A DNA stretch of 64,000 bases from Nitrospirota bacterium (GTDB taxonomy: Bacteria > Nitrospirota > UBA9217). The DNA is taken from assembly GCA_963818475.1 (NCBI GenBank), contig CAWFSF010000005.1, positions 352,001 to 416,000 on the forward strand. Reading direction: 5' to 3'. Shown here one piece after another: positions 42,109 through 64,000 of the stretch (its first letter is position 1; each line of letters starts with the position of its first letter). Below the pieces are notes generated by a model, which saw nothing but the letters and a program-made list of their open reading frames with translations, was not told the DNA's origin and did not search any database. Both the position numbers and the translations under genes were made by a program.

Positions 42109-42195
42109 ATCCTTCGGCAGCCCGGCTTTCTTTTCCTGCGAAAAGATCCGTTACTTTCCGCTCCCTCTTCACAGAGGGTTTGGCTTTATCGGGAC
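42109..42195 (-). promoter_or_regulatory. c-di-GMP-I (GEMM-I) riboswitch with overlapping terminator (42084-42125)
   Basis: Minus strand GCCAAACCctct-GTGA-agagGGAGCGGAAAGt...GGATC...AGCCGGGCTGCCGAA, then gcccgg-ttttt. Confidence 0.8.
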
Positions 42196-43511: not shown

Positions 43512-44393
43512 GTGAATAAGGACCTTTCAGCGATCCGCAGGCTCGTCGGTGTGGTCACGAAGGAACAGCTTCGGTATGTAGACTGTTTTGTGTCCGAAGA
43601 AGTCGCGCTGTTCATGCCGATGGGAGGCCCCTGCTACTACGCGCTTACGCCCGAGCACTCCCATCCTGCCTACATGTTCGTGCTTAATTTTACAGACCGG
43701 ATGTCCGTCAAGATCGATGGGAAAACAATACCCGACAGGCCGGGCAAGGTCTTCGCCTTGTCGCCTGACATCCCGCACCAGGAGCTGCCCCTGGACTCGC
43801 CTCCGCGGTATATCTGCGCGATGATCGACAGGATGTTTTTCGAAAAACAGTACCGGAGCTGCGCAGCAAAGACGCCGGCAATCTATCGCGGCGCTTTCTT
43901 CGACGCCGGGGAAGGGCTTCCCCTTCTGCTCAAGCGGTTCATGACCGAGGCGGAAAGCGGAATACCCGGAGGGAAAGCCGTACTCGCGGCACTGGGCGTC
44001 GAGATATGCCATTCGCTCATCAGGACCATCATCAGGACACCTGCAATGAAAAGCCGTGTGGAAGAGCGCGTCGAGATCGGCCGCGCGATCGAGCATATCC
44101 ACTCGAACCTCGATGACAAGCTCATCGTCGAAGACATGGCTGCTGTCGCCCGCTTGTCAGCGTCGCACTTTGCCCGTGTCTTCAAAAAGGAAACGGGCAA
44201 GGCGCCCATGGAATATGTAAGCGAGCTCCGCCTGGAGCGCGCGAAAAAGATGCTCCTTGCCGGAGACCGGTCCATTACCGAGATCGCCGTTCTCTGCGGA
44301 TTCGGCACCCCGTCCTACCTCTCCGCCTGTTTCCAGAAGCAATACCGGATGACGCCGTCAGAGTACCGGCGGATGCCTGGGAAAGCCCGCTAA
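43512..44393 (+). CDS. AraC family transcriptional regulator
   Basis: Cupin-like N-terminus (HSHP); LSASHFARVFK..TG, ITEIA..CGF..PSY. Confidence 0.93.
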   Translation: MNKDLSAIRRLVGVVTKEQLRYVDCFVSEEVALFMPMGGPCYYALTPEHSHPAYMFVLNFTDRMSVKIDGKTIPDRPGKVFALSPDIPHQELPLDSPPRYICAMIDRMFFEKQYRSCAAKTPAIYRGAFFDAGEGLPLLLKRFMTEAESGIPGGKAVLAALGVEICHSLIRTIIRTPAMKSRVEERVEIGRAIEHIHSNLDDKLIVEDMAAVARLSASHFARVFKKETGKAPMEYVSELRLERAKKMLLAGDRSITEIAVLCGFGTPSYLSACFQKQYRMTPSEYRRMPGKAR

Positions 44394-44759
44394 CAGTCGA
44401 ATCTCTAAAAAAGAACATCGAATATTGAAAGCCGGATCTTCGGATTTGCCCTATCATGCTCATCAACAGGATACAGGGGCGAATTTTCAGTCACCATATT
44501 ATGTTCTGTTTCTGTCAATCACAAAAGATCACGTCTTTGCTGTGCTAATAATTCATTGCCGTCCTCCGTGCCTCTGTGTCTCCGTGGTGAAACTGCTTTT
44601 TTAAACTTTACTAATACAAACGCATTTAGATTCATTACCGCTTTCTCCCCTCTCCTTTATCCTCTCCCCAGCGGGGAGAGGGCTGGGTGAGGGGGATTCA
44701 TTCGGGATGTAACAATTATTAATTCGTTTGCATTATATGCTTAATACGAAAGGCGATCT

Positions 44760-45710
44760 ATGAGCGGGTCAAAAAATACGGGATATAAAACATATGCAGC
44801 AGCTCCATTCATGATGATAGTGCTCTATGTACTCGCGGCGGCTTTCTTCTGGCTTCTCTTCAAAGACAAGGCCACGGTCATCTTCTTTGTCATCCTGGCG
44901 GTTATCTTCATCTCGTCCATGAGCCTCTATGCCGTAGTACCGATCAAATTCAAGAACAAGGTTCGGATATCGACCATATTCCTGATCAGCCCGCTGCTCT
45001 TCGGATTGGCCTGCATAGTGGGACGACAGAACTTTCAAATTGAGGGGTTCTTTTTCTATCTCTTGACCGGAACCTTTGGCGGAGTGATGATCCATTTCAC
45101 CGTGGGCAAGATCTTCGGGCCTCTTTTGACGGGGCGGACCTGGTGCAGTTGGGGCTGCTGGACGCTTATGATACTGGATCTGCTGCCCTTTAAGAAGAGC
45201 GACGGCTGGAGGCAGGGAAACATCACCCTGTTGAAATACATCCACCTGGTCCTGTCCCTGGCATTGGTCGTAGTCATGGTCTTTATTTTCAAATACACGC
45301 TCCATGACCCGAATCAAGCGCCGGACCAACCCGGTCTTATGAAAGCGATGTACTGGTTTATCATTGGCAATGTCTTCTATTATGCATCCGCTATCGCAAT
45401 GGCAATTTCATTAAAAGACAATCGGGCATTCTGCAAATACCTCTGCCCGGTGTCCGTGCCGCTGAAGTTCGCCAACCTGTTCTCGATCCTCAGGATCAAA
45501 GGGAATAAGAAAAAATGCGCTCGCTGCAGCACCTGCGTGGGTCAATGTCCATTTAATATCGATATCCCCAGATACATCGAACTGGGGACCCGCATCAAGT
45601 CGTCGGAGTGTGTGATGTGTATGAGGTGCGTTGCGGTCTGTCCGGAAGGCGCGCTTTGTGCTTCTATGGGTTTTGATGTAGTGACCGAGGATTATTTGAA
45701 AAGGTGTTAA
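44760..45710 (+). CDS. membrane 4Fe-4S binding protein (NapH/MauN-like)
   Basis: GRTWCSWGC, RAFCKYLCP and two CxxCxxCxxxCP motifs. Confidence 0.9.
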   Translation: MSGSKNTGYKTYAAAPFMMIVLYVLAAAFFWLLFKDKATVIFFVILAVIFISSMSLYAVVPIKFKNKVRISTIFLISPLLFGLACIVGRQNFQIEGFFFYLLTGTFGGVMIHFTVGKIFGPLLTGRTWCSWGCWTLMILDLLPFKKSDGWRQGNITLLKYIHLVLSLALVVVMVFIFKYTLHDPNQAPDQPGLMKAMYWFIIGNVFYYASAIAMAISLKDNRAFCKYLCPVSVPLKFANLFSILRIKGNKKKCARCSTCVGQCPFNIDIPRYIELGTRIKSSECVMCMRCVAVCPEGALCASMGFDVVTEDYLKRC

Positions 45711-45865
45711 TGCGTTTAATCAAAAGCTTTGGGGAAAATTTAGTCGGAACAAAGATGGTGAGGAAGTAGCGTATAAACCGGTGGCGTGCTGATCTACGCA
45801 ACCTGCACCACCGAGCCGGAGGAGAATGAGCACGTGATCGCCAATGACGGCGGTGAACCATTAAT

Positions 45866-47262
45866 TGTCAAATGTCAGGACATCGGTTACCCGATTCTAA
45901 TGGTCCCATATATCAAGACATCGGTTACCCGAGTCTGATAGTTTGCTCAACTGGTAGTAAATCGTCCGGCATTAGGTACTCAAAAGTATCGACGATGTCA
46001 TTTCCTAGATAGAGCTGCACAGCATGTAGATTCGTTACAATCTGTGCCCTGACATAAGAGTATATGAGGTCTCTTGATACCTCGAAACGTTCTCCAAAGA
46101 TATCAAGCTGCCGATTGCTCCGGATGAACCGTACGAGAGATACATTTCCATCCGGGATGAAGCTAAGATCCGGCATCTTGCTATTCGACCTCACGGTTAT
46201 TGGCGCAAAGCCGTGGGCCAGTTTCATTTCATGAGCCGTTTTCCCTTTGAGGCAGCTGTATCGGTGATGCTTGTTGTGAAACCGTTGAAAATTCTTGTTC
46301 TGCTGTTTCAGCACAGCATAGCTTGAGAACCATTGCCGACGAAAGAACCGTTTGTCGTAGGTGTCATTGAAACGTTCCACAACGCCGTTACGCCATGGTT
46401 CTCCGATCGGGATGAATACCGGATGGACACCGTAACTCAGACAAAGCCGTATGACCATCCCCATGGACCTGGGATGCCGGTTGCTGCCCCGGAAGTTCAG
46501 CGCGTTGTCCATCTGCAGGTAATCAGGGATGCCCACGGTCTTCCAACAGCGCAAAAGGCCTTGGCAGACGTGGGAATCCTGTTTCGTTCTTTGAGCCTCG
46601 GTGTAGACTTCATGGCTGAACAGATCAATGACATTCAGCGCATAGAATCTGCCGTCATCTTTAATGTAGCGCGGCCCCACCAGGTCCATCTGGTGGATGT
46701 TGTTGCATCCCAAGGCTTCGGTGAAGTACGGGTATTCGACCCCTTTGGGCGCATAAGCTGTTTTTTTTAACGAGCCCTTCGCGTTTCAACACCCGGTTTA
46801 TCGTGCTGTCCGAGGGAAACGGCAACCCTTGCTTCTTAAGCTCCCATTTTATGGAGGAAACTCCAATTTGGGCATAAGGGGCATCCACCAAGTTTTGTCT
46901 GGTCGAAAGAATACGCTCTTTCGACTTCTCGTCGATTTCTGAGGGCTTTGTTTTGGGAGCGCGAGATTGCTCTTTGTACCAGTCGGGTCCGCCGGTTCGA
47001 TATCGTATCAGCCATTTGAAGAACCACTTTTTGGATCGGTTCAGGCTGGTATAAACATCCTTTGGCGATTCGCCTCCCTGGATGTGTCGGCTAATAGCTG
47101 CCTGTCTGAGTTCTTCTTCCATAGAGGCTCTCCTTCTTGATTCAGATTAGGAGAGCATGATAGCATCAAACAGCATTAAGGAAACTGACATCCTAATTTA
47201 AATGGATTTCGGGTAACCGATGTCTTGACATATCCGGGTAACCGATGTCCTGAAACTTGTCA
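45866..47262 (-). mobile_element. insertion sequence, IS481-like (HTH + rve DDE transposase, CDS 45925-47122 split at an A8 run)
   Basis: TG...CA ends; two GACATCGGTTACCCG motifs at each end in inverted orientation; ATTAAT duplicated at 45860-45865 and 47263-47268; HQMD, QMDN, NGVVERFN. Confidence 0.92.
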
Positions 47263-47293
47263 ATTAATAACTAAGTTTACAATGTACCAGATA

Positions 47294-48064
47294 CTAATCG
47301 GGGAATGCAATACCGGACAAGCGACCGCATGCTGCAAGATACTTTTCCTGGACAGCCGGGTCCGCGGCAGCCGGGTGAAAGCTCCGGGGTTGTTGATGAG
47401 AGAAATATCTTCCCGAGACCAAGGCTTCCTTGTCCCGGCTCACTGCGAGCCAGACCTGCGTCCTCGATCCCTCCTCGATGCTGTGCGGCGCTCCCGGTCC
47501 TCCCATCTTCGTGGCCACCCAGCCGGGATCCACTGCATTGGACAATACATCGGGCCATTTCCGGGCAGCGGCAAAAGCAAGGATGACGTTGTGCAGCTTC
47601 GATTCGGCGTAGGCGCTCGACTCCTGCCATGGCCGGCTGCTCCAGGTCAGGTCGTTCAACGTGGCATCGCCGCTTCGATGCAGGCCCGAGCTCGTGTAGA
47701 TCAGGCGTTTCGGCCTCCTGATCAGGCAGGTCAGGATATAGGAGGCCAGGGAGTTCACGGCAAAGATCTGCGGCAGGCCATCAACGGTCCGGTTGCCATG
47801 AGGATCGCGATAGATGCCGGCATTATGGATCACGGCATCGATCGGTCCCAGCTCGTTCACCTGGTCCGCAAGGGACTTCGTCTCCGCGATGCTCGCAAGA
47901 TCGCCGATAACGGCGGTCAACGCGCCCGTGACTTTGGAAAGCGCCGCGTTCGCCCGCTGTCGGCTCCGGCCATGCAGCACGACCTGGTGGCCCTGTGCGA
48001 CCAGCAGCTGAGCTTCCATGAGGCCGATACCGTCAGCAGAGCCTGTGATGAATATTCTTGCCAT
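47294..48064 (-). CDS. short-chain dehydrogenase/reductase
   Basis: ITGSADGIG, HNAG, YAESK, VDPGWVATKM. Confidence 0.93.
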   Translation of the reverse strand: MARIFITGSADGIGLMEAQLLVAQGHQVVLHGRSRQRANAALSKVTGALTAVIGDLASIAETKSLADQVNELGPIDAVIHNAGIYRDPHGNRTVDGLPQIFAVNSLASYILTCLIRRPKRLIYTSSGLHRSGDATLNDLTWSSRPWQESSAYAESKLHNVILAFAAARKWPDVLSNAVDPGWVATKMGGPGAPHSIEEGSRTQVWLAVSRDKEALVSGRYFSHQQPRSFHPAAADPAVQEKYLAACGRLSGIAFPD

Positions 48065-48225
48065 CGAGTTTTCTTCGAGATTCCCCCGCCGTCTTCATAT
48101 AGCGCAGGCAAAAGACCGGAGCATCTTCGGGACAATCGCCGCGACAGCCACGGTCCGGGGCACGTGCAACGCCGGATCGCGGTGCAACGAGTCAGGCAAG
48201 CTTTCGCTTTGATCGAGCTTTTGGC

Positions 48226-48672
48226 TTAGCCTTCGCCTTGGATTTGAGCTTGGCTGCTTTTTCGTTTCTTCGGCGCATGCCAATTAAAGGGGATGGGCTG
48301 AAGCATACTCACGCGGTTGCCCTCCGGGTCGATGAACGACACATATTGACCGACGTTCGGGATTTCCATGGGTTCGCCCAGCACATTCCCCCCCGCGGCT
48401 TGCACTTTCTTGATCGATTTCTTGATATCATCAACTGCGATAACGATGGACGGATATTGCGCGGGCCAATCGGGTTTTCTCGGGTAAAAACCGCCGTTGA
48501 TCCTTCCTGGTTTTTTGGGGCCTTTCTCGCCGGTTTCCGTGGTGGCTGCAGTAACATAATTACCCATCTCCTCGCCAAGCATCCGCGTCTGCCAGCCAAA
48601 AGCAGATTTATAGAACTTCGCCATACGCACCCGATCGTCGAATGGCATCTCAAAGTGTACAACGGGATCCAT
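48226..48672 (-). CDS. VOC/glyoxalase family protein
   Basis: VVHFEMP, FY..AFGW, INGG, VDDI, F.DPEGN. Confidence 0.9.
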   Translation of the reverse strand: MDPVVHFEMPFDDRVRMAKFYKSAFGWQTRMLGEEMGNYVTAATTETGEKGPKKPGRINGGFYPRKPDWPAQYPSIVIAVDDIKKSIKKVQAAGGNVLGEPMEIPNVGQYVSFIDPEGNRVSMLQPIPFNWHAPKKRKSSQAQIQGEG

Positions 48673-48728
48673 ACTGTATCCTCCTTGACTATGATGACGG
48701 TGCCTTTAAATGGGTGACCCTATGAGGT

Positions 48729-48899
48729 TCATAATTTGAGGTAGTCGAGCAATCTATACATTATGATTGCAGGCCAAACTATTGCCTTGAGAAAGCCCAA
48801 CACCCCTCCCCAGAAAGAAGTTGAATGCTGAATGAAATATACTGCCGCGCCGACGAATGCCAGACCGTAAATACCTCCACATGATTTTTCGTCTTTCAT
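48729..48899 (-). CDS. 56-aa membrane protein (not in ORF track)
   Basis: MKDEKSCGGIYGLAFVGAAVYFIQHSTSFWGGVLGFLKAIVWPAIIMYRLLDYLKL with RBS aaggag. Confidence 0.75.
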   Translation of the reverse strand: MKDEKSCGGIYGLAFVGAAVYFIQHSTSFWGGVLGFLKAIVWPAIIMYRLLDYLKL

Positions 48900-48970
48900 A
48901 TGTTCTCCTTAACTATAGTATAGTGAAAGTCGTGCCTGAAGAGGTTTCGTGCGTGGAACAGGGATGAATC

Positions 48971-49402
48971 TCAGTATGTTTTCCCCGGCTCAGGCGGACA
49001 AAAATTCACGTTATCGTAATAAGGATAGATGTGGAAGTTAGGGGCGGGCTTCTCGTTTATCTCATAACCATGCTTCCGGAAGGCCGATTTCAGTGCACCC
49101 TGCTGTTCACTGCCGAGTGAGGTGTATAGGCGGTCCAGTTTTTCCTGAGAACGATACGTGCATTGGGCTTCAAGCAACCCGGTGCGCACGTCTGCGGGCA
49201 GCGCTGCATCGGTCAAAACCGCCTCAAGGTCCCCTGACGTGCACAACATTCTATAAAGGGTTTGATCCTGACTGCCGAAAAAATAGGTATTGCAGTCCTT
49301 TGAGACGAGAAACGTCTTTGCGCAGCCGGTGAAGAGCAATGATGCCGATATCATTACCAGCAGCTTCCGGAGTGAAGTCATATGAAGAGCGGTATTCGTC
49401 AT
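48971..49402 (-). CDS. lipoprotein, hypothetical
   Basis: Lipobox FTGC; several Cys; start uncertain. Confidence 0.7.
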   Translation of the reverse strand: MTNTALHMTSLRKLLVMISASLLFTGCAKTFLVSKDCNTYFFGSQDQTLYRMLCTSGDLEAVLTDAALPADVRTGLLEAQCTYRSQEKLDRLYTSLGSEQQGALKSAFRKHGYEINEKPAPNFHIYPYYDNVNFCPPEPGKTY

Positions 49403-49453
49403 AGATTGTTTAGGTTTGCCACGGTCTGCGTGAAACATCAATACCTACCGTCC

Positions 49454-49777
49454 TTATGAATCGACGAGACGGAAGCCGGCGTTCTTCCATCCTTCGACAC
49501 CGCCGCCCAGGACCTTGGCATTCGGAAATCCCTGCGCCAGATATTCCGCTGCCCGACCGGCAGCGCTCGCTTCTTTCTGTCAGGCTCAGTAGAAGATGAT
49601 TTCCTGGTCTCGGGACAGGGAGGGCAACCGCGCCTTGAAGTCCTGCAGCGAGATCGCGGCCTCAAGGTGCGTTTTCCCGAACTTTTCCACGTCCTCGTAC
49701 GCGCATACCAGAAGGGCCTCTCCGGACGTCACCTTCTTGCGCGCCTCTTCTGCCGATATTCTTATTGGCTCGGTCAT
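49454..49777 (-). CDS. rhodanese-like protein, candidate selenoprotein with two in-frame TGA
   Basis: IIFY-TGA-A-TGA-QKEASAAGRAAEYLAQGFPNAKVLGGGVEGWKNAG completes the rhodanese fold; hairpin at 49547-49565. Confidence 0.8.
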
Positions 49778-49968
49778 GGCGGGCCTCCCATCGGTGGATA
49801 GGCTGTGAATGAATAAAGGATAGCATAGACCAGAGGGAGATGCATGGGGAGTGATCTCAAAAGCGGCGGGAGGGCATGAAATGAAGAATCGGCAGGATAA
49901 CCTGTTTTCCCTGTTAGAACTTGTTCTTCTTTTAGAAGAATCTTCAATTTCCGCTTTGTTCTTTTCAT

Positions 49969-50022
49969 AAAAAAGGCCGGCAGAGATAATTTCTCCGCCG
50001 ACCTCGCTGTTTCAGTTCCTCG
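49969..50022. repeat. degenerate direct copy of the groEL terminator region
   Basis: ccggcagagata.t.tctc.gccg.cct..tgtttcagttcctcg matches 57818-57870. Confidence 0.8.
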
Positions 50023-50129
50023 CCTGCACCCAGCGATACGAGTGCTCGCCGCGAGTGCAGGTGTGAAAGAAAACTTTTTATTCTTGATAAAGGAATCTAA
50101 AGACTTCGCCATCGTCCGCGGGCAGCTAT

Positions 50130-50312
50130 TTATCGTCCTGAGATTTTCTTCCACCTCTCCAGTTTCCGCGAAGGAACGAAATCGTTGACAAATTGATTCG
50201 CCTCTTCGAGCCAGTTCAGCTTTGCCTCGGGTGACGCGTCTTGGAAGTGTTTCAGCGCCTCTGGCGATGGACGGAAAACAAAAGGTTTTTTTCGCGGGTC
50301 CCGGCTGATCAT
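50130..50312 (-). CDS. small hypothetical partner of the nucleotidyltransferase
   Basis: ATGA overlap with upstream gene; SPEAKLNWLEEAN. Confidence 0.7.
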   Translation of the reverse strand: MISRDPRKKPFVFRPSPEALKHFQDASPEAKLNWLEEANQFVNDFVPSRKLERWKKISGR

Positions 50313-50806
50313 TTCGTTTCCTCCGCCTGCTCCAGCGACTCGATTGCCTCGATATCCGCGATGTCCTGCGGTCTGTTTGCCGCTTTTTTGAGTCTCTTCA
50401 AATGCGCCAGCGAAACAACGGGTATGGAGATTCCTTTCGCCGTAACGCGCACAAGCTCATTCATGATCTCTCCGAAGGGGATCTTTTCCTCGATAAATAC
50501 ATCGATCAAGGTCATCGGCTGCCCCGGGTCAACGAACGAGAACACCTCCATGCCCTTATCCCGCTTCCATTGGATCCGTGCGGCCGGATCGAGCAAATCC
50601 ACGGCTTTCACGGGATTTCGCGGGACGTAGCCCAGTTCACCCATGGCTTGAACAAAGCGTTCCAGGTTGTCCGGCTCCAGATCAACGATCAGATCAAGGT
50701 CGGCAGTGAACCTGACCACGCCATGAAGCACCAGCGCGACGCCGCCTGCGACGGCGTACCGTATGCTGTTTTTCTGAAGCACGCTGAAAACATTTTCATA
50801 ATACAT
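50309..50806 (-). CDS. minimal nucleotidyltransferase-fold protein
   Basis: VAGGVALVLHG..RFTADLDL; LKKAANRPQDIADI. Confidence 0.85.
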   Translation of the reverse strand: MYYENVFSVLQKNSIRYAVAGGVALVLHGVVRFTADLDLIVDLEPDNLERFVQAMGELGYVPRNPVKAVDLLDPAARIQWKRDKGMEVFSFVDPGQPMTLIDVFIEEKIPFGEIMNELVRVTAKGISIPVVSLAHLKRLKKAANRPQDIADIEAIESLEQAEETK

Positions 50807-51062
50807 TCGGGAGCCCTGTTCTGAGATTGCCTTGCCACATGCCGAAAATAAAACGTCTCAACTTACTGAAAACTTTACTACATATATCCACAAAGGGCAA
50901 GCGAAGAATCGTTCGTGCCTATCGCACAGGCTTTTATCAACTCAAGCAACAGCCCCACAACGGGGACTTTTATGTCTAAAAACGGCAGTTACTCGCGCAA
51001 AAAGCCGCAAAGTACGCTAAGAAAAGTTGGGACTTGAACCCTTTGAGTGAACCCTTTTAGGG

Positions 51063-51932
51063 TCAAGTCGCTTTTGTTGCATTCTCATATTCACGCAACC
51101 ACCGGCTTATCGTCGAACGGTGGACTGCGAGGTGTCGTGCAAGCTGACTTTGATGATAGCCGTACTTCTCTACCGCTTCTATCAGTTTCTTCTTCAGCTT
51201 TCGCTGATCGGCGTTTATCGATTCTGGCAACAGCTTTGACAATGCGGGCCGCGTTGAGTATCGCTGGCTCCGAGGAATCTCGGGGATATCCTGGTGTTTC
51301 CTGAGATGATCCACCAACGTCTCGACAAAGTCATCCTCGCCCAGGAGCGCCTGCCCCCTCACCGCAGTCCAGATCGTTTCTTCCCCGATCCCCCATCTGA
51401 TGAATTGCCGGTACTCGCTTTCCGCTTTTCCACGCTTTCCACTGAACTGCCCGAGCACCCAATCCGTAGTCAGGCAAGGGTGGGACTTCGCTTGGCCCGC
51501 TGTGGCCAGATAACTGGACCACTTCCAGGACTCCGGTCCTTCAACCATCCTGGCTCGCACTGGATTCAGGACAACATAGCGGCATACTTCCAGAAGATGG
51601 CTGTCTTTCTGGATCAGTATCGCCTTGTAGCGACCTTGAAACAAGTGTCCGTTCCTGCCGTGATATTTGTTGAAGAGCTGCGTGTAGACACCGTTGAGCT
51701 GCCGCATGCCAAGGGACAGATTGCCTTCGGGAGTCTCGATGAGAAGATGGTAATGGTTGGTCATGAGGCAATAGGCGTGACAGTTCCAATTGTACCGTTT
51801 ATTGACGTGCTGGAGAGTATTCAAAAAAACTTCCCGGTCATGATCATCCTTAAAGACAGGCTTCTTCTCATTCCCGCGGGAAGTGACATGGTAGACTGCA
51901 CCTGCGTATTCTATGCGGAGAGGGCGTGACAT
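51063..51932 (-). CDS. Y1 HUH transposase (RAYT/IS200-like) with C-terminal HTH
   Basis: YHVTSRGN, AYCLMTNHYHLL, GHLFQGRY, YVVLNPVRA, WKWSSY; inverted repeats at 51051-51081 and 51963-51992. Confidence 0.92.
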   Translation of the reverse strand: MSRPLRIEYAGAVYHVTSRGNEKKPVFKDDHDREVFLNTLQHVNKRYNWNCHAYCLMTNHYHLLIETPEGNLSLGMRQLNGVYTQLFNKYHGRNGHLFQGRYKAILIQKDSHLLEVCRYVVLNPVRARMVEGPESWKWSSYLATAGQAKSHPCLTTDWVLGQFSGKRGKAESEYRQFIRWGIGEETIWTAVRGQALLGEDDFVETLVDHLRKHQDIPEIPRSQRYSTRPALSKLLPESINADQRKLKKKLIEAVEKYGYHQSQLARHLAVHRSTISRWLREYENATKAT

Positions 51933-52143
51933 GGGGTGAGCTTAGCAGAAAAAAGGACGTATTGCAACAAAAGAGACCTGACCCTAAAGGGTCCCTGGAA
52001 CCTTAGTGTCCACGTCCCCTATGTATCCTAAAAGTCCGGAGAATCATTTCCAGCCTTTTCTTTTTGTTCTCTTTGTCGGCTGCGACTGCCTCTCGCTATG
52101 AATCAGAACAAAAGCATACATAGAAACAACGTCCCCAAGTCTG

Positions 52144-52214
52144 CCCCAGATAAGCTGATAACTTCACCAAGACGCTTTGGGGACATCCTATACATGCTTT
52201 CTTTCATCAGGTCT
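52144..52214. repeat. ~70 bp dispersed hairpin repeat, copy 2
   Basis: Matches 43326-43393. Confidence 0.85.
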
Positions 52215-52274
52215 AGCAAAGCAACCATAGAAACAATTTCCCTATCGTGCCCTACTGTCTCCCTTGGTTGTATT

Positions 52275-53828
52275 TCACTCTGCTGTATTTTCGGTATTTT
52301 GCGGAAAAACTTCTCGTTGATCATAACGATACCGATCTAACTTTCTCAAGTCTCGTGCTAGTGGTTGTTTTGGACTCGACATGAACTCTTTTACACTAGG
52401 AGCTTTCCTAAATCCCGTATAGAAGGCGTAATCAAGCATATATGCTTCATACTTCTCACCTGCAGTTGTAGGTGTTATGCCTGGATGTAAAATATGAATG
52501 AATCGTAGATCGCTTACTTTTTTAATTAATTTATATCGTTCATCCGAGCTATCAAGTTTAACAAGAAAAGCGTTACGCTTAATTTCCTTTAGGCAATAAT
52601 CCTTTATGTCATTGACAATATCTATAACGAGCGTTGCCGCCTCGGCTACATCATCTGACACATAATTTTCTTTCTCCGTTAAAGAATCAGCGGCGGCCAT
52701 GTTTATATCCATTACCGCAACATTAGTACGTCCGGCTGCAAGTGCTTTTGTAATTGCATTATTAAAAATATAGAGAGCATCTCGTGGAACGCCAGCTGCA
52801 ACCCATACGAGTCTTGAAAGAGCCGCTTTTCCGGCTATGCTCGCTATGCTAGGAATTCCAACATATTTCACATAGCTATCAAGTATCAAATGCAAGTGAT
52901 TAAGTGCTTCACCTGGATTGACTAAGTTATAATCAAGTCGTATTACCTGAGCATCGCCGGGGGTCTGAAGTCCTTCATTTGTTTGTTCATGTAAAAGCGT
53001 TGTTAGGTTTTCAATGGACGTAATTTTTAAATAAATGCTGTTCCCTCGTGCGAACGAATAGATTGTTGATAAAAAATAGGGTTGAATCGTTGGATGTAAC
53101 AGGTGAAGATCATCCAAAAATAAATAAAAATGTCCAAACTTGCGCACGAATGGCAAAAAATCGCGTGCAAAAATAGGTAATTTTTGATTAATTTCTCTTT
53201 TTGTAAGTTGTTCTCCCTTGTTTTCAAGAGCAATAATAATATCTTTGAGCCGTTGTATCCGATTCACATCAGCTTCTGAGTACTCCGAAATTGCATCAAC
53301 TATTTCATAAAGAACCTGAGGAATAACTAATAGATCATCTCTCCCGCTGTATTGCTGGAGAGCGATCCAGGCAAAAGGTCTCTTCTCGCGTTTAGCTTGA
53401 TGACATGCATAAAGTACCAAACTTGATTTCCCTGCGCCGCGTCGGCCAAAAACTACGTGGTTAGCTTCGCTGTATATCCGTCGCTCCTCACCTCCTAAAA
53501 ATGGAATGAATTTTTTGTGAAAATCGGAGTCGAGTGTTGCTTTGCCGACAGTAAGCGATTCTGACAGTATACGTTGAAGAAGTTGAATCTCATTAGATTT
53601 GAGCCACGATTTTGGTATGACTGTCTTCAAGAATACGTGCTCTGAATATTTATTGTTCGACCCCATCTCATTACGAATAAGTGAAAGAGCATTTGTATAA
53701 ATCTCGTTGATATGCCCTACGTGGATTGCTAAAAAATCTTCGCCTGCCTTGTCAATTATTTGCCAGTTAGGGGTAGTAATGTTGCACACAGCAGCAAAAC
53801 GATTAATAAACTGTTTGGCTTGATCCAT
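52275..53828 (-). CDS. P-loop NTPase (STAND/ORC-CDC6-like), possible defence component
   Basis: Walker A GRRGAGKS, Walker B YLFLDD, GVPRDAL; AT-rich. Confidence 0.85.
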   Translation of the reverse strand: MDQAKQFINRFAAVCNITTPNWQIIDKAGEDFLAIHVGHINEIYTNALSLIRNEMGSNNKYSEHVFLKTVIPKSWLKSNEIQLLQRILSESLTVGKATLDSDFHKKFIPFLGGEERRIYSEANHVVFGRRGAGKSSLVLYACHQAKREKRPFAWIALQQYSGRDDLLVIPQVLYEIVDAISEYSEADVNRIQRLKDIIIALENKGEQLTKREINQKLPIFARDFLPFVRKFGHFYLFLDDLHLLHPTIQPYFLSTIYSFARGNSIYLKITSIENLTTLLHEQTNEGLQTPGDAQVIRLDYNLVNPGEALNHLHLILDSYVKYVGIPSIASIAGKAALSRLVWVAAGVPRDALYIFNNAITKALAAGRTNVAVMDINMAAADSLTEKENYVSDDVAEAATLVIDIVNDIKDYCLKEIKRNAFLVKLDSSDERYKLIKKVSDLRFIHILHPGITPTTAGEKYEAYMLDYAFYTGFRKAPSVKEFMSSPKQPLARDLRKLDRYRYDQREVFPQNTENTAE

Positions 53829-54322
53829 TATGAGATTGCTCCTAGTGTTATCAAATAATTGCGCGCTACCTGGTGGAATCTTCGCGCTTCTGAAACGTAT
53901 GTGTGGCTTGTGAGTTCTAATGCCTGTTCAGATACCGTATGGTCGTAATCGGCAAGATTTCGATCAGCTCTAAATTTAATGAGAAAATCTTCCCATGTCG
54001 ATTTATCTGGAAAGTTATTTGGTAATTCACCGATCTTTTTATGGTCAGTAGGCTCTGTATTGTAATAACCGCTGGACTTGAGCCTAACTGCTCGGCTCAT
54101 ACAGTAAGTACTATAATAGCCTCGTGAGACTCTTTGCCGCCAGCTTGATTGACCTGCAGCCGACTCTGCAAATAGTAGATGTGAGCGGCTAAGATTGACT
54201 AATTGCTGGACGTTTTCATTTATAGCAGCTTGTATTTTTCCCAGTTCCCCAGCGTCCAGAATGGATTCAAGGCACCTCATTGTTTTTTGCAGATTGATAT
54301 TTAAAAGGTGATTATCGTCCAT
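53828..54322 (-). CDS. HEPN domain protein
   Basis: VSRGYYSTY, DHKKIG and RNLADYDH motifs; TAATG overlap with the NTPase. Confidence 0.75.
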   Translation of the reverse strand: MDDNHLLNINLQKTMRCLESILDAGELGKIQAAINENVQQLVNLSRSHLLFAESAAGQSSWRQRVSRGYYSTYCMSRAVRLKSSGYYNTEPTDHKKIGELPNNFPDKSTWEDFLIKFRADRNLADYDHTVSEQALELTSHTYVSEARRFHQVARNYLITLGAIS

Positions 54323-54741
54323 TGGAGTATTCCATTCATATTACTGCAGATTTTTATTTAAACTTATTATTCCACACAGCTTGCTGCGTGGTCACCTTAT
54401 AGAGGGAAGAGTAAGAGAAACCGCTGGTTTCTCAGTTGAACAATTTTCATTTATACCCTGTCAGCTTGCTGCAGGTATTGATTCGAAAGAACTATATCAT
54501 AATATAGGCTGATTGAGAATATAAAATAGGGTTGACAAGGACTGTAAAAGTATGTACCTCGAAACACAGGGGCTTAATGATATATAACGTTGTGTCCTAA
54601 GTGAACTATTACTGCCTATATCGATAAGTCAATTTCAGACACCCCAATGATCGGTCCATCGGCCTTAAGCATTGACGAACGCATCCATAAAAAACTCCAT
54701 AAAGTTCCTCGTAGGACACAACGTACCAAAGTGCTCTCCAG

Positions 54742-55236
54742 TCACTTAAATTTATCGGCTTCAGCAAGAATGGCGCTTAAGAACTCTGTTTCTGCTGTTT
54801 GTAGGCCAGCGAGAGCACTTTCCATCTCTTTAACCACTATGTTTTTGTCATCAGCAGACGCAATATTAAAACCTTTACCAGACATAGAAGATAGTAACGC
54901 ACGGTAAGAAAAAACCTTATCAAGGAACGGCCTCACTTGAGGGAAATACATATTCACCTGCAAAAGCGTTTTGTCGTAAGCTTTTCCCTCATCACGATTA
55001 TCATTACTCATCTTTAGGAGAGCTGATCCGGGTATTTTCCCTTTAAAATAGGTCAATGCGTTTTCATGATGTATATTCATCATTCGACAATACCGGTGTG
55101 CGCTTATATAAAGCTCTGCTGCATTATTGCGCATGAGCAAACGCTTTTCTTTTTTTGCAGCCAATTTATGAGCAAGTGTGGCGGATACCACACCACTCAT
55201 CAAAATAGTCAATACAGGAAATATCCATGAGTTCAT
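54742..55236 (-). CDS. hypothetical protein with N-terminal TM helix
   Basis: RBS gagga; TM then helical domain; AT-rich. Confidence 0.65.
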   Translation of the reverse strand: MNSWIFPVLTILMSGVVSATLAHKLAAKKEKRLLMRNNAAELYISAHRYCRMMNIHHENALTYFKGKIPGSALLKMSNDNRDEGKAYDKTLLQVNMYFPQVRPFLDKVFSYRALLSSMSGKGFNIASADDKNIVVKEMESALAGLQTAETEFLSAILAEADKFK

Positions 55237-55408
55237 ATGTTATCCTCGATATACCTTGGAAGTGTATCCTATACTTTGCGAACGTTGTTTCTTTCTAGGC
55301 TTTCTCAAGTCCTACTGCTCAGTAAAGGGGAAGCAACCTTAGACACAATGTCATATTTGTTCATAATGCACTAAATTCATCAAGGTCCCAAGGAGCTCCC
55401 CTTAATGA

Positions 55409-57249
55409 TCATTTTCCTTGATGATCCACAACTCTTTTCAGTGCCAGACGAATACGCTGTCTATCTATAAATACCTTTGAAACGACTACATTCAAGCCCT
55501 GTCCTCTGACGACATTTTTTTCAAAATCAGCATACTCAAAACCTCCCAGAATCATTTCTTCTTTTGGAATATGCCCTGTTAGCCCTTCTGGAAGGCTGAC
55601 ACTAACAAAATTTGGCGTGACTGCCTGAACGATGGCACTCAATTCTTTTCCTTTTGGAAGCCGCTTATGAATTTTTGGCCAAGGATTCTGTTCCAAGCGA
55701 CGGATGCTGCCTTTAATGATCCTGCGCTCAACAGACCGTTCGTATATCATGATTTTTTTCCGGCCATTTAAAATATCGTTTGCTTCAGACTCATCTGAAC
55801 CGAGCCAATCCACTTCATGCTTCGGTATAAATATTTCGATATTGTCGCAATAATCCCCTACATAGTTAGAACCAGTGACACCCACTATATCGACTTCGAT
55901 GACATCATTAACCTTAGGCAGCTTTTCCGACTTCCAAGGATCTTCATCAGGGAATCGAAGTGATAGACTCAGTTTACTTTGATTTTTATCTATTGTTTGC
56001 ACTCTGAATTGGTATGTAGATCCAATATGCAAAACATCGCTGCACTTAGCTATTGATCGCCACGAACATTCATTTTTATAAATGACTGCATTTAATCCCT
56101 GCACGTCAACAAGTGTTGCACTTTGAGATATGTCTAGTACGACCCCTTTTACAAAGCTGCCCTCCTTTATAGAAAGAGCCGTTAGCTTTTCTTCAAAACT
56201 ATTATCAGAAGAGAGCTTATTCCTGCGTAAAAGAGATATTTCAAACACCTTACCATTCTTAATATTATCCGAACTCTTGATGCTAATCTTATTTGTCTTG
56301 ATTAACGTCAGCCTTACATCACCGTCAATTGCCGAGATAAGCCTTTCAGAAAAATCATGTGCCTCAGGGTACGCGATTACATATATAGAGTCGCAGCCCT
56401 GTCTCAATTTGACGTTTATTGCCTGCAAGTAAGGAGTAACTCCTAATTCCTCAGCTTTTTTGGTTTTTGCCAGCAGACAATGCCTGCGCGAACTTCAGAA
56501 CTGAGATACTCAAGGCACATTTCTTCGCCAATCTCTCGGTTCGCCAACTTGACTAAATATTCTACAAACAATAGAATTTCATTAGTTTTGTCTACTCCAA
56601 TAATATCATCGTAAAGCGTTGCGCCTAATAAATTTAGCTCTTCTAAAAATATAGTAAGAAATATTCCGTTATCATCCAGCCTGATGAGCTTCACAATAAG
56701 ATCAGCCACACTCTTGTTTTTCTCGATTTCGGGATTGAGAAAATATCGTTGAAAGATTGGGCGTGCGTGTTTGCCAAGCTTATCTGCGAGATTCCGGAGA
56801 ATTGTAAGATCAATCGCTGTTTGGGCATATGGCTCTAAATATGCTCGTAAATCAGCACAAACTACATGTGGTAGTGCAACTCTGGTGGCTGCCAATATAT
56901 TCCGAGTTTGATCATTCGTTTCTTCAAGACGCAATATCAATGTACCGTCCTGCAAAAATGTAGGATCAGAAATAGATGTTACCCACTTAATCTTAATTTT
57001 CGTGTCTGCCATGGATGGCATGAAAGGCTTAACATGTTTCTTAAGAAATTCTGTCGCAGTATATCCGACTTCGGAGGCTAAATACTCTTTTGAACCCCAT
57101 TTAAAAAGCAAAAATAATGGTTTAAAGATGAGTGCCTTTAACTTTTCCGCTCGATCTGGATCATGAATGACGAGCAATAGAGCTACCAGAAGGACGCCGG
57201 GTAGCCCATATGATAATATAATTTTCATAATTTCCTTTGCGACTTCCAT
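55409..57249 (-). CDS. membrane-anchored protein with unknown domain and three S1 RNA-binding repeats (frameshift near 56480)
   Basis: Reads through as LLAKTKKAEELGVTPYLQAIN in the alternate frame; S1 signatures (G.V..I...ATLVD, LSLSLR...DPW, IRRLEQNPW, RIRLALK). Confidence 0.75.
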
Positions 57250-57476
57250 TACTTCCTCCTAGTTGCTGCTTGGTCTATGCACTCTGGAAGATTACAATAG
57301 AAAATCAGGCCAGGCTCCTTAACAATCAAAGCCCCCATGTTTTCCCAGTTCATAACTTGAGAACACGATTCACATGTTAGTTTTCCTTGGTCCATCTTTT
57401 CGGATAGATGGTATTTTTGTAGTATATCCCGTAGGTCTCTATCTCTTACGGCAGACACTTCTACTTTTTCTCGCAT
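57249..57476 (-). CDS. small Cys4 (CxxC...CxxxxC) putative metal-binding protein
   Basis: LTCESC...FYCNLPEC; RBS aggag; TAATG overlap with the S1 gene. Confidence 0.78.
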   Translation of the reverse strand: MREKVEVSAVRDRDLRDILQKYHLSEKMDQGKLTCESCSQVMNWENMGALIVKEPGLIFYCNLPECIDQAATRRK

Positions 57477-57817
57477 AAGCTATTATCTCCTTTCATAAAC
57501 TAGTAGCAGAGGCAGTAGGGCCAGGCCAAAATTTGAAATACAAAGGGACGTTGTTGTTGAAATTGCGTCGTGCGAATCTAACAGAACTGAATGGATCTTC
57601 GGCATGGTGCTGAATGCACTCAACAATTTGTTGCATGATTGTAACTGATTTACTGTTCTCCGTCACCTGTCAGAAGTGACAGGTACCCGTTTTTCTAATA
57701 AAAACTTCCTTGGGAGCACTACTGTTGTTAGGACCGTGGTCCCAACTGCACCCGCGCAGTCCGGACTAACTTTGAGCCGTTAATGCTTTTGATGCTGTTC
57801 ATCCCGATCAGGTTCAG

Positions 57818-57849
57818 AAAAAAACCGGCAGAGATAGTATCTCTGCCGG
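57818..57849 (-). terminator. groEL intrinsic terminator
   Basis: ccggcagagat-act-atctctgccgg followed by T7 on the minus strand. Confidence 0.85.
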
Positions 57850-57895
57850 CCTTCGTGTTTCAGTTCCTCGTGAAAGGAAACTTCGTTCATGTATC

Positions 57896-59550
<1,655 letters not shown>

Positions 59551-59666
59551 ATAATATTTCCTCCTTGGAAATCTTATTATTTTTTCGCCACGAAGGCGCG
59601 AAGTCACAAAGGGAATCAGGCTTATTGTCCGGCTTTCTCAGCATCTTAGTGTCGCTGGCAGAATTT

Positions 59667-59934
59667 CTAGCCAGGATGCCCAGTACGTCTTCTTCTTTCA
59701 CGATCAGGTACTCGATGTTGTCGATGTTGATCTTGGAACCGGAATAGCGATCGAAGAGGATCTTGTCGCCGACCTTCAGCTGACTTCACTTCCTCGCCGA
59801 CGGCCTCGACCTTGCCCGCTCTGCGGCTTTTCTTTTGCGCTGTCGGGGATGTAGAGACCTCCTGCGGTCTTTTCCAGCTCCTCGGTATAGCTTACAAATA
59901 CCCTGTCCTTCAACGGCTTGAATTTGACGCTCAT
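59667..59934 (-). CDS. groES: co-chaperonin GroES (frameshifted; not in ORF track)
   Basis: Manual translation [14 protein letters not shown]...[17 protein letters not shown]...LKVGDKILF...[13 protein letters not shown]. Confidence 0.95.
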
Positions 59935-59997
59935 CTTGCAACTCCTTTCGTGTAAAATAATTATATCCTCTTGCTTACGCTACTATTCTACCACAAG

Positions 59998-60024
59998 TTA
60001 GCACTCATTGGAAGCGAGTGCTAA
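59998..60024. promoter_or_regulatory. CIRCE operator (HrcA)
   Basis: Perfect TTAGCACTC-N9-GAGTGCTAA upstream of groES. Confidence 0.97.
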
Positions 60025-60051
60025 TATATTGCCTGGCAAGTAAAAAAGCAA
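60023..60051 (-). promoter_or_regulatory. groESL sigma70 promoter
   Basis: TTGCTT-N17-TATATT abutting CIRCE. Confidence 0.7.
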
Positions 60052-60152
60052 ACGCTGATTTTAGGCAAATTATGCTAATTTTAGTTAGTATTTAGCTGTT
60101 TTAGCCAGATTTCTCACATAATGCTGATTTTTAATAACATTATGATAAAAAG

Positions 60153-60184
60153 AAAAAGCAGGGCTAATAAAGCCCTGCTTTTTC
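60153..60184. terminator. intrinsic terminator after the S41 protease gene
   Basis: aaaaagcagggct-aataa-agccctgcttttt. Confidence 0.85.
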
Positions 60185-60209
60185 AATTAGTTACTTATTT
60201 TCTGAACTG

Positions 60210-61610
60210 CTACTCGTTTTTCTTTTTCACTTCTACGGCAGCTTTCTTGGCACGGCACGATTCTTGAAAACATCCTCTGCCTTCGTCGCCGTTTTCAGGA
60301 TCTCGATCGCCTTCTGGATCTGGATGTCGTCCTTCTCGTCCTTGGGCACGACCTCCATGAGCGAAATCATCCTCTCCGCCGCGTGCTCGTGCTTCTTTCT
60401 TCTTTTTCTCTTCCTTCACCGTATCGTTCTTCAGATGCCGGTCAAGGTCCTTCTCCCTGACGACCATGACATGGACCGCCTCGCCGTCCTTCGCTTCCTT
60501 GATCGTCGGCAGTTTCACCTCGAGGTCGGGGGTGATGCCCACATTCTGGATCGAGCGGCCGCTCGGCGTATAATACTTGGCCGTGGTCAGCCGGATGCCG
60601 CGTGCCGTTCTCGAGCGGGAACACGGTCTGGACCGATCCCTTGCCGAAGGTCTGGGTGCCGACGATCAGCGCCCGCTTCGAATCCTGCAGCGCCCCTGCC
60701 ACGATCTCCGACGCGCTCGCGCTGCCGGTGTTCACGAGAATCACGATCGGATAGTCCCGCGGAGTTTCCGTCGCTCGTGGTGAGATAGTCCTTCCGGTCG
60801 CTCTTCTGCCTGCCCTGGAGATAGACGACCAGCTTGTCCTTGGGCAGGAACTGCCGCTCACATCGACCGACGCGTCCAGGATGCCTCCCGGGTTATTGCG
60901 CATGTCGAGGACCAGCTTCTTCATGCCCTTTGCCTCCAGCTCCTTGAGCGCCTTCTCCAGCTCGATCGGCCGTCTGGCCCTGGAACTGGATGATCTTCAC
61001 ATAGCCGATATCGTTGTCCAGCATTTTCGATTTGACGCTCTGCACCTTGATGATGTCGCGGGTGATCTTGAATTCCTTCGGCTTGTCCCATCCTTCGCGC
61101 TGGATCGTGCAGCCGCACCTGCGTGTTCTTGGGGCCGCGCATCTTGTCCACGGCCTGCTCGATCGACAGGTCCTTGGTCCATTCATCGTTGATCTTGACG
61201 ATCTTGTCGCCTGCCAGCAGTCCGGCGCGGTCCCCGGGCGTGCCCTCGATCGGCGCGATGATCGTCAGCATGCGCGTTCTTGATCCCGATCTGGATGCCG
61301 ACGCCCTGGAACTCGCCCTTGATGTCCATGCTCATTTCCTTGAACGCCCGCTCGGCCATATAGGACGAGTGCGGGTCAAGGCTCGACACCATGCCCCGGA
61401 TGGCGCCCTGGATCAGCTCCTTGGAGTCCGGGTCCTCCACGTAGTTGCGCTTGACCAGCTCGAGCGCCTGCGTAAACGCCTTCAGGTCCTCGTACGTATC
61501 GGACTTGGCCTGGACCAGCTTCCTGGCCGATCAGTATGCCGGTCGTAAGCAGGACAGCGCTGCAGCAGCAGACGACGCCGCCAGAACTTCTTTTTGTTGA
61601 TCCTGATCAT
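60210..61610 (-). CDS. S41 carboxy-terminal processing protease, multiply frameshifted
   Basis: LDPHSSY, PDZ GVGIQI, LDMRNNPGG, SASASEIVAGALQD, TFGKGSVQ, GITPD. Confidence 0.93.
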
Positions 61611-61689
61611 GTCATCTTCCTCCGCATCGTTATGCATAGTTTGCCTCCGGAACGGCTGTTCGCGAACGACCGGTCGTGTACCCGGCCGC

Positions 61690-62860
61690 CTAGTTGTTTC
61701 GTCAGCCAGGCCGAGCGGGTCCTGCGCCTCGCCTTTGCGGCGTATCTCGAAATACAGCTTCGGACCCTTTCAGGCTTCCCGTATCGCCCACGCAGGCCCA
61801 CGACCTGACCCTTGCCCACCCGGTCGCCCTTGGCCAGGGCGATCTGGGACAGATTGCCGTAGAGCGAATAAAGACCGGCGGCCATGCTCGATGATGACCA
61901 GCTTTCCGTACCCCTTGTACCAGTCCGCAAAAGCGACCTGCCCGTCGTTGACCGCCCGAACCGTATCGCCCTCGCGCGCTCCGATCTCGATGCCCCGCCG
62001 GAAGACCATGGTCTTGAACTGGGGATGGCGCTGCATCCCGAAGCGCGTCAGCACCTGTCCTTCCACCGGCCAGGGAAACCGGATCCGTGCCGGCGGCCGC
62101 CGCGCTGCGCTCCGCCGGCTGCTTCCGGGCCGTCCTGCCCGTCTTGCTCCTCCTGCTTGATCATGGCCCAGAGGCTGGCCGAGGATTCTTCGAGCTCGCG
62201 CAGCGTCTGTTCGTACACGCCCTTTTTGCTCCTGACCGAGTTGAGGATCACCGCTTTTTCCCTGCGCCGGGCTAGAAGCTCGGCCTTCTGGGCCTCCACG
62301 GCCAGCTTGCGCCGGGAGATCTCCTCTTTCCTGCCCGCGGTCTCGGCCTGGAGAGCGGACAGCCGGTCAAGCGCCATGCCGTACTGGCTGATGACGGCAC
62401 GGTCGCGTTCGGCAATGATGCCGAGGTACTTCATCCGCTTCAGCGCCGTATAAAAGCTGTCCGACGTGAGGATGGCCACGGCATAGCTGTTCCGGCTCAT
62501 CTTGTACAGCGCCCGGATCCGCCGGCCGTAGGTTTGCTGCAGGCCGGCCAGTTCCCGGCTCAGCTCGCTGTTGCTCTTTTCCATTCCCCGCAGGGCGTCC
62601 TCCGCCTCGCGAAGCTTCGCCGGTTGTCGGCAAGCTCCGCGTGTCCCTTGCTGCATGCTCCGGTCAAGCTGGTCCAGTTCTGCCAGGATCGAGCGCTCCT
62701 TGCCGTCGCGCCCGCTTGAGCTCCGTTTTCTTCTCCTGCATCTGGCTGCTTGAGCCGCTGCAGTTCCTTCTTGCTGCGGCCGTCCGCAGCGGACTGTCGG
62801 CCCGGCATACGGAAGAGCTCCCCTGCAGCCAGGCCCAGGGCGACCACGGAAAACGATCAT
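61690..62860 (-). CDS. envC: murein hydrolase activator EnvC family (coiled coil + M23), frameshifted
   Basis: Coiled coil; RRGIEIGA..G..VRAV..G.V.FADWYKGYGKLVIIEHG; downstream of ftsX. Confidence 0.85.
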
Positions 62861-62944
62861 GCTCAAGCGCGCGGGATCGTCATTCGTTCTCGGCCGACCG
62901 ATGACCCTGCATCCCCTCTCCCTGCGGCGTGCCACTGTTCCCGT

Positions 62945-63835: not shown

Positions 63836-64000
63836 GGCTCCCCCTTGCGGACCGGTCCTTGCGGGCCCTCGTCCGCGGGCGGGCGGAGGGAAAGCGACCA
63901 TTGCACATGCCGCTTGCCGTCATCGGTCACCCTGCCCCGCTCCATCGTGATGATCCTGCGCTGCATCTTTCTGACCGTTTCCCAGTCGTGCGTGGCAACG
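63832..64000 (-). CDS. ftsE: 3' end of cell division ATPase FtsE (start outside window)
   Basis: VATHDWETVRKMQRRIITMERGRV directly upstream of ftsX; exact stop uncertain. Confidence 0.8.
   Translation of the reverse strand, partial: VATHDWETVRKMQRRIITMERGRVTDDGKRHVQWSLSLRPPADEGPQGPVRKGEP

Follow-up and report, generated by a model that had tools for sequence, protein, structure and literature searches.

The locus described here raises the question of whether two overlapping genes, one for a HEPN protein and the other for an ATPase, form a system in their own right, how their products might act together, and whether such a system has already been named. The window referred to below is the whole stretch of DNA analysed, 64 kb in length.

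A compact cassette in a variable stretch downstream of groEL

The preliminary description had proposed an AT-rich operon of two overlapping genes, and on both counts it holds: the two open reading frames (ORFs) were recovered on the minus strand (Table 1), base 53828 being common to the HEPN stop codon and the ATPase start codon (TAATG overlap), and the GC content of the pair is 0.40 against 0.53 for the window. The cassette is self-contained, about 2.05 kb long and low in GC, and it is intact, unlike the split ORFs of the groEL neighbourhood. An Rfam scan returned no RNA family close to the pair, and scans around it for promoters (23 vs 15.7 +/- 3.8 in shuffles) and terminators (8 vs 5.1 +/- 2.6 in shuffles) each gave a modest excess.

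A direct repeat of the groEL terminator region (D2; 49970-50022 and 57818-57870, 53 nt, 83% identical) encloses 7.8 kb of unrelated accessory cargo, which suggests, from the sequence, that the groEL 3' end is an insertion hotspot; the low-GC stretch that starts directly after groEL spans 52000-57900 (GC 0.40). The cargo contains a REP-associated tyrosine transposase (51053-51991; NF047646 above cut-off) with 29-nt inverted repeats on either side, and related transposase ORFs flank the pair on both sides in a Rhodopirellula locus (L003). An AbiEii/DUF6036-like nucleotidyltransferase (50309-50806, 165 aa, a match below Pfam cut-offs) was considered as an antitoxin and rejected: it lies 1.5 kb downstream, beyond the transposase, and, since it stands beside no related locus among the matches listed, does not belong to the system. 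It overlaps a 60-aa ORF, and the two (50130-50806, minus strand) resemble a toxin-antitoxin-type pair in its own right. Another ORF, of 164 aa (54742-55236, minus strand), lies 420 nt upstream of the HEPN gene; it begins with a hydrophobic helix, matches no family and was found beside none of the related loci among the matches listed. Further on (55409-57249, minus strand), an ORF of 268 aa whose N-terminus is hydrophobic is separated by 15 nt from the next, which is 339 aa long, consists of S1 RNA-binding repeats and weakly matches S1CSD-TOTE-1 (E 0.02); the two are possibly one frameshifted gene, another conflict-system candidate. From 57896 to 63900, groEL and its housekeeping neighbours are broken into several ORFs, which suggests assembly indel errors. 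Elsewhere in the window, a c-di-GMP-I-GGC riboswitch (42112-42193, minus strand) scores slightly above the Rfam gathering score.

Table 1. Features of the HEPN-ATPase cassette and the stretch that holds it (window coordinates)
Feature	Position	Strand	Remarks
HEPN gene	53828..54322	-	164 aa; class II (PF05168-like), N-terminal extension of ~35 aa; predicted RNase effector
SRxYY motif, residues 66-70	54113..54127	-	S66, R67, Y69, Y70 invariant
DH, residues 93-94	54041-54046	-	second conserved histidine motif; D93, H94 invariant
R121-N-x-x-D-Y126-x-H128	53939..53962	-	Rx6H candidate catalytic motif, including the conserved tyrosine of class II HEPNs
ATPase gene	52275..53828	-	517 aa; NTD, ORC/Cdc6-STAND-like AAA+ domain, helical lid, probable winged helix
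NTD, residues 1-75	53604..53828	-	alpha-beta-beta-alpha-beta; predicted HEPN-binding module
Walker A GRRGAGKS, residues 128-135	53424..53447	-	G128, R129, R130, G133, K134, S135 fully conserved in ungapped rows
Walker B acidic pair D239-D240	53109..53114	-	invariant in 63/63
GVPRD, residues 346-350, helical lid	52779..52793	-	V347, P348, R349, D350 invariant
Probable winged helix, residues ~396-470	52419..52643	-	helix-strand-helix-hairpin in model; conservation 0.62
Variable stretch, not part of the system	49970..57870	.	just downstream of groEL, between two 53-nt terminator-region copies

The pair is conserved and mobile

A scan of GTDB confirmed 167 matches, and the best 80 of these gave 78 loci, to which the counts in this section apply unless another collection is named. 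In a quick tree of 63 rows with near-full-length ORFs, the ATPases form two groups (SH-aLRT 100), L001-L047 and L048-L078. HEPN lies directly upstream in 40 of the 47 loci of the first group and beside none of the 31 ATPases of the second. The two genes overlap by 4 nt in 29 of the 40 paired loci, and such retention, with such overlap, makes a chance pairing untenable; the gene-neighbourhood check that had been proposed for the pair thus comes out in its favour. The seven HEPN-less loci of the first group are all 5'-truncated or fragmentary, and one of them keeps scraps of HEPN and of the ATPase N-terminal domain (NTD). The 40 paired loci come from at least 14 named phyla plus three unclassified genomes, the closest GTDB relative among the matches listed being a Nitrospirota MAG (78% ATPase identity), and the GC content of the cassette is more than 3 points under that of its flanks in 39 of the 40 loci measured. 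Among HEPN homologues on contigs of at least 2.1 kb, 29 of 44 agree exactly in longest-contig size with a member of the 85 nearest ATPase homologues, a coincidence of sizes that backs the pairing indirectly. A natural HEPN-NTD-ATPase fusion of 694 aa (P0099) was also found; it lies on a single 2.8-kb contig and could therefore be an assembly indel.

No third gene recurs with the pair: an all-against-all BLAST of 842 neighbouring ORFs returned housekeeping families only, and TIR, SNF2, Septu and restriction neighbours, considered as components, were set aside as non-recurrent. When nine locus pairs were compared by blastn, four were similar across the ~2.05-kb cassette only and three also in the flanks; the window and L001 share 1.85 kb, and L011 and L033 share 1.2 kb within the cassette. 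Most copies are flanked by housekeeping genes. A credible PADLOC defence gene was present in the two nearest ORFs per side at 6 of the 40 loci (L008, L011, L021, L024, L042 and L046), a count that stands without a background rate and comes from 143 of 144 ORFs, with the matches at L001 and L039 and an HTH match at L024 set aside as non-defence. The linkage of the pair to defence islands is modest.

The pair occurs on one of 72,556 plasmids (NZ_CP051517, L079), beside SIR2, ATP-binding and PIN genes, and the full-length ATPase in none of 50,697 phage records (INPHARED). On that plasmid (NZ_CP051517.1, L079 5453-12434), an SOS mutagenesis cassette flanks the pair on one side and SIR2, ATP-binding, KTSC and PIN genes on the other, a region that is likely to be a defence hotspot. 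Cultured, non-pathogenic carriers include Pseudomonas sp. TH41, Caballeronia ptereochthonis, Rhodoblastus acidophilus and Paraburkholderia aromaticivorans, so that the pair can be cloned and tested at once. In Candidatus Paraburkholderia calva (L045 7243-9175), both genes are frameshifted; the syntenic Caballeronia copy (L028) is intact. All together, the HEPN-ATPase pair is a real, conserved and mobile two-gene system.

The second group consists of stand-alone ORC/Cdc6-like ATPases of ~530 aa from many phyla, without a conserved partner gene among the matches listed; in most of them, 55-60 aa are inserted into the AAA+ domain. At L048 (7770-11321), one of them continues in frame into gyrase B-like sequence, which we take to be GyrB, giving 1183 aa; the join stems either from loss of the stop codon or from a chimeric assembly. 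A solo-type ATPase in a Bradyrhizobium prophage (OP596612.1, L081 882-4040) is split by IS1380 and lies between tRNA-Thr and an integrase.

A class II HEPN with a candidate catalytic site

The HEPN fold proposed for the smaller protein is borne out by homology and by fold evidence, and the motifs are where they had been read (SRGYY at 66-70, DH at 93-94, RNLADYDH at 121-128). The predicted fold is all-helical, and the R121-x6-H128 spacing falls within the Rx4-6H form of the HEPN catalytic motif. Residues R121, N122, D125, Y126 and H128 are unchanged in 63 of 63 paired sequences; over 112 distinct homologues, DRN is kept in 111, the tyrosine (Y126) in 107 and the histidine in 105. As to the class, hhalign pairs the protein with class II (PF05168-type) HEPN at 86%, PF05168 itself matches 5 of the 63 members at E<=0.01, the window protein matches PADLOC PDC-M05B at E 2e-5, and the conserved tyrosine is that of PF05168-type HEPNs. 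The RX4HXY motif that defines class I HepT/MntA (PMC7641770) is absent, the motif here being RNxxDYxH. A single-sequence PDB search gave nothing useful, and a weak match to a Thermus plasmid HEPN (E 0.02) was discarded as lacking an ATPase neighbour. By these sequence criteria, the protein descends from the HEPNs of class II (PF05168) HEPN-MNT toxins and is probably an RNA-cutting toxin, a candidate in a class for which no demonstrated RNase activity was found in the accessible parts of two studies (PMC7641770, PMC11586414).

An ORC/Cdc6-STAND-type ATPase

The larger protein had been described as a STAND-like P-loop NTPase, and it is indeed of ORC/Cdc6-STAND type: PF24389 matches above cut-off, and the best fold matches of its model are SSO1545, Orc1/Cdc6 and PAB2304. 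The motifs noted earlier (Walker A GRRGAGKS 128-135, Walker B FLDD 237-240, GVPRD 346-350) are all in place, the last being labelled here as a GxP or sensor-2-like motif on our own assumption. A single P-loop domain is present, and an AAA+ core with intact Walker A and B is followed by a helical lid and a probable C-terminal winged helix. The model aligns up to residue 470-472 with full-length SSO1545 and PAB2304, and the region, conserved to the same degree as the ATPase core, probably corresponds to a wHTH (residues ~396-470) as modelled. The protein ends ~40 residues past this winged-helix-like unit, and neither the Pfam scan nor the model shows a C-terminal TPR, LRR or WD40 repeat sensor. 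No conserved arginine was found at 290-296, ahead of the strand at 294-297 (R297 is 56% conserved); the conserved arginines R261, R339 and R349 could act in trans. PDB searches with the ATPase, single-sequence and profile, gave nothing useful.

The N-terminal domain and its predicted complex with HEPN

The preliminary description overlooked the NTD of the ATPase, which in the model comprises helices 2-15 and 42-58 and strands 22-27, 30-37 and 65-69. It is the fastest-evolving part of the protein, with a column conservation of 0.41 vs 0.59-0.63 in the rest. Among the best 80 of 167 matches, it is present in 40 of 40 HEPN-linked loci and in none of the 31 solo-ATPase loci; as this co-occurrence is a single event on the tree, it amounts to an anatomical correlation and not to repeated evidence.

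Modelling of the pair as a complex, one of the checks suggested at the outset, predicts a physical association. With two HEPN copies, the full ATPase and paired 63-row alignments, the ipSAE is 0.68, against 0.00 for the best of three controls; 116 of 157 solved complexes attain the ipSAE mark, as do 2 of 215 mismatched pairs, counts that apply only roughly here. At least 92% of contacts are common to the runs, with a partner pLDDT of at least 81. All confident contacts on the ATPase side fall within residues 25-68, that is, in the NTD (the second helix, the loop and strand after it, and the hairpin), and those on the HEPN side (95-98, 106-127 and 136) come from one HEPN copy and take in the motif residues N122, D125, Y126 and D127. 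Solved HEPN-MNT complexes share an interface formed by MNT helix alpha2; in the Legionella complex, HEPN alpha3/alpha4 and the alpha2-beta3 loop take part, the loop as a second site (PMC11586414, as far as its accessible text goes). The NTD elements used in our model correspond to these MNT interface elements, and the complex score may for that reason reflect this likeness; it supports, without demonstrating, the binding of HEPN to the NTD. Inter-chain covariation over the 25 best predicted contacts is weak (mean z 0.56), a value as high being reached by 1.2% of 2000 random sets, with alignments that are the same as those of the model and hence not independent.

Sequence comparison did not detect an MNT ancestry for the NTD. 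None of 146 NTDs carries the GSx10DxD nucleotidyltransferase motif, and hhalign comparisons with 1, 2 and 12 MNTs give probabilities of 0.1-1.3%, which are not significant. In local mode, the NTD-MNT score (12.85) lies above 40 of 40 block-shuffled controls, the reversed alignment giving 13.44; in global mode, 20 of 40 shuffles score as high, and the forced global alignment with 12 MNTs is collinear. Pfam returned 14 single-member matches for 34 NTDs (E 0.007-0.18, noise level), two of them to what we take to be nucleotidyltransferase-fold families (PAP_NTPase 0.076, MdcG 0.18). The NTD profile retrieved designed proteins only from PDB sequences and, from 1.84 billion representatives, 63 matches that are all N-termini or fragments of the same ATPase family; the ESM Atlas gave no usable match as to its identity, and no MNT or KH chain appears in 50 VIA rows or in the Foldseek rows shown, lists that the AAA+ domain fills and that therefore say nothing about the NTD. 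The topology and the predicted binding site are nonetheless consistent with an inactive Pol-beta nucleotidyltransferase, and we think it fairly probable that the NTD descends from the MNT antitoxin with which this HEPN class normally pairs and has lost its catalytic activity; a KH-II-like or an unrelated alpha/beta fold is less probable, the type II KH/DnaA-domain-I-like fold having the same topology. The earlier remark that no nucleotidyltransferase antitoxin or reverse transcriptase is adjacent stands to the extent that neither a reverse transcriptase nor a catalytic MNT recurs beside the pair among the matches listed; it has to be qualified in that the NTD, according to the model, appears to occupy the antitoxin's place.

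Proposed mechanism

We lean, if only somewhat, towards a model in which the NTD keeps HEPN off until, upon infection, it is freed or re-paired by the ATPase, the whole cassette being an ATPase-gated RNase toxin directed against phages or mobile DNA that would act through dormancy or cell death. The two overlapping genes travel together. Their products are predicted to bind through the HEPN helix that bears RNxxDYxH and the NTD, and this contact would keep the RNase off without chemical modification, either by masking the motif or by blocking the active HEPN dimer. The Cdc6/STAND-like ATPase would then serve as the switch, an infection cue altering its nucleotide or oligomeric state and so freeing or re-pairing HEPN. 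Given the kinship to Orc1/Cdc6/TnsC and the conservation of the winged helix, our best guess for the cue is DNA, most likely foreign or replicating and read by the winged helix. Finally, the active HEPN dimer would cleave RNA, probably tRNA, rRNA or mRNA, and halt translation.

Clustering of the NLR type, in which HEPN would be monomeric and inactive when free, the NTD would be a mere tether, and ATPase oligomers formed on infection would pair the HEPNs into active dimers, seems unlikely to us. It draws on the order of the P0099 fusion, which is that of a STAND effector-NTPase-wHTH protein, on the presence of CED-4, plant resistosomes and Avs3 among the structural neighbours of the ATPase, and on the position of the toxin gene, which comes first here, whereas in MNT-HEPN operons the antitoxin is nearly always 5' (PMC3710099, from the part available). 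The predicted presence of motif residues in the interface, however, would fit masking better than display, and no locus among the matches listed has an intact HEPN without the NTD, as would be expected if free HEPN were toxic.

The sparse defence neighbourhood described above, with most copies alone amid housekeeping genes, speaks against a role in defence and for a toxin-antitoxin cassette of stress or addiction, where the ATPase would sense the ATP state or protein turnover and HEPN would give dormancy or stabilise the cassette; the toxin-antitoxin descent of this HEPN and the near-absence of the pair from plasmids and phages point the same way. A conserved ATPase-wHTH portion of 440 aa nevertheless far exceeds what neutralisation would need, and the patchy, low-GC spread over at least 14 phyla, as well as the neighbours at L008, L011, L024 and L079, fit conflict systems better, so that we regard this reading as rather improbable.

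Least probable of all is that the ATPase is itself the effector on invader DNA, as the authors of HINPO (see below) propose for their ATPases in the available part of their preprint (bioRxiv 10.64898/2026.10.19.760177), with HEPN a back-up or a non-catalytic RNA-binding regulator: the 31 sister-clade loci listed with ATPase-wHTH and no HEPN or NTD do imply a function for the ATPase alone, and some MNT-linked HEPNs lack catalytic residues (PMC3710099, in part), but the near-invariant R121, H128, H94 and SRxYY of the paired clade argue for a selected catalytic site.

Comparison with known systems

Several families couple a P-loop ATPase to an N-terminal or adjacent effector, among them Avs and bacterial NACHT proteins, PrrC, RloC and Ava_2192/type-1 BR, the last three being HEPN-ATPase fusions with HEPN under ATPase control, as far as the available sources describe them. 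The cassette ATPase differs from Avs/NLR-like proteins in having no TPR, LRR or WD40 sensor; the ATPases of PrrC and RloC are of ABC type, and BR/Hma need a methylase and a helicase, neither of which recurs near the cassette among the matches listed (again as partially documented). The likeness to Sll1717 (NF047389) and DS-41 (NF053860) is weak: 62/63 and 21/63 members match at E<=0.001, but the window ATPase scores 35 and 16 bits vs cut-offs of 75 and 370, and matches best around Walker A. The part available of PMC3710099 deals with HEPN-ParA dyads and with HEPN-STAND fusions, and not with this pair, and other ORC/Cdc6 or HEPN systems have different partners (PMC10853773, PMC12839542 and PMC13092281, likewise in part).

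With class II HEPN-MNT (PF05168/PF01909; type VII toxin-antitoxin; PDC-M05), the cassette shares the HEPN family, SRxYY/RNxxDY with the conserved tyrosine and, according to the model, a resembling binding geometry. It differs in having no GSx10DxD nucleotidyltransferase (a motif scan of the window and L001-L081 was positive only at L048 and L078, which are solo-ATPase loci), in its partner, a 517-aa ATPase, in the HEPN gene coming first, and in a HEPN that adds a near-invariant histidine (Rx6H) and an N-terminal extension. A precedent for steric silencing of HEPN by an MNT domain is offered by FhepTA, where AMPylation-dead MNT mutants still silence HEPN by preventing dimerisation; FhepTA itself, unlike the cassette, has a class I HEPN (RxxxxHxY), an active MNT and no ATPase (PMC13000451, accessible part).

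The preliminary description could match the pair to no named system. As regards PADLOC 2.0 this is correct: no system was matched, the window ATPase matches no model, and the 63 ATPase members reach at best E 1.7e-4, with at most four members per model. A closely similar architecture has been named, however, in HINPO, which comprises a HEPN of the PA-HEPN1 family, an inactive nucleotidyltransferase-ParA and an ORC-CDC6/STAND ATPase and is predicted only; its authors regard ParA as the chief effector and assign nucleotide sensing to the iNTase (bioRxiv 10.64898/2026.10.19.760177, from the text available). No other close architecture was found in the non-subscription literature, so far as its accessible text extends. 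The two have in common, by their described architecture, a predicted immune role and the order HEPN, fast-evolving N-terminal domain, ORC-CDC6/STAND ATPase, with HEPN upstream and the ATPase downstream. In the cassette, unlike HINPO, ParA is neither fused nor adjacent, the NTD is directly joined to the AAA+ domain, and the position equivalent to the iNTase is predicted to bind HEPN. No ParA lies between HEPN and ATPase, whose genes overlap or are at most 140 nt apart, barring ORF-calling overlaps. The KGGxGK[ST]-type motif, which we take as the pattern for ParA, is absent from ORFs of at least 60 aa in the 78 GTDB loci (best 80 of 167 matches) and in the window from 44001 to 62000; ParA-containing relatives could lie among the matches beyond the best 80. 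Without ParA, the cassette is by definition not a HINPO member, and it probably works like part of HINPO; the available part of the preprint makes no mention of a ParA-less form (bioRxiv 10.64898/2026.10.19.760177).

Tentatively, we suggest that a class II HEPN-MNT pair may have been rebuilt as an NLR-like receptor, in which the MNT, deprived of its catalytic loop and joined to a Cdc6/STAND ATPase-winged helix, would have become an ATP-controlled clamp on the RNase. If so, HINPO would either derive from the cassette, as its minimal core of two genes, or reduce to it; the inactive nucleotidyltransferase, on whose role the cassette bears, would be recast as clamping a toxin and not as sensing nucleotides (bioRxiv 10.64898/2026.10.19.760177, as partly available). 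Whether class II HEPNs are RNases could then be put to a clean test, and the cassette bears on whether they are active toxins (PMC7641770). Should the model hold, it would show a route from a toxin-antitoxin pair to an ATPase-switched immune receptor. ATPase-gated HEPN nucleases in general are already known; what is new here is a ParA-less, HINPO-like, ATPase-gated HEPN pair, a compact and intact two-gene candidate defence system outside PADLOC 2.0 calls, which looks like a putative anti-virus self-destruct module and a simpler cousin of the recently predicted HINPO.
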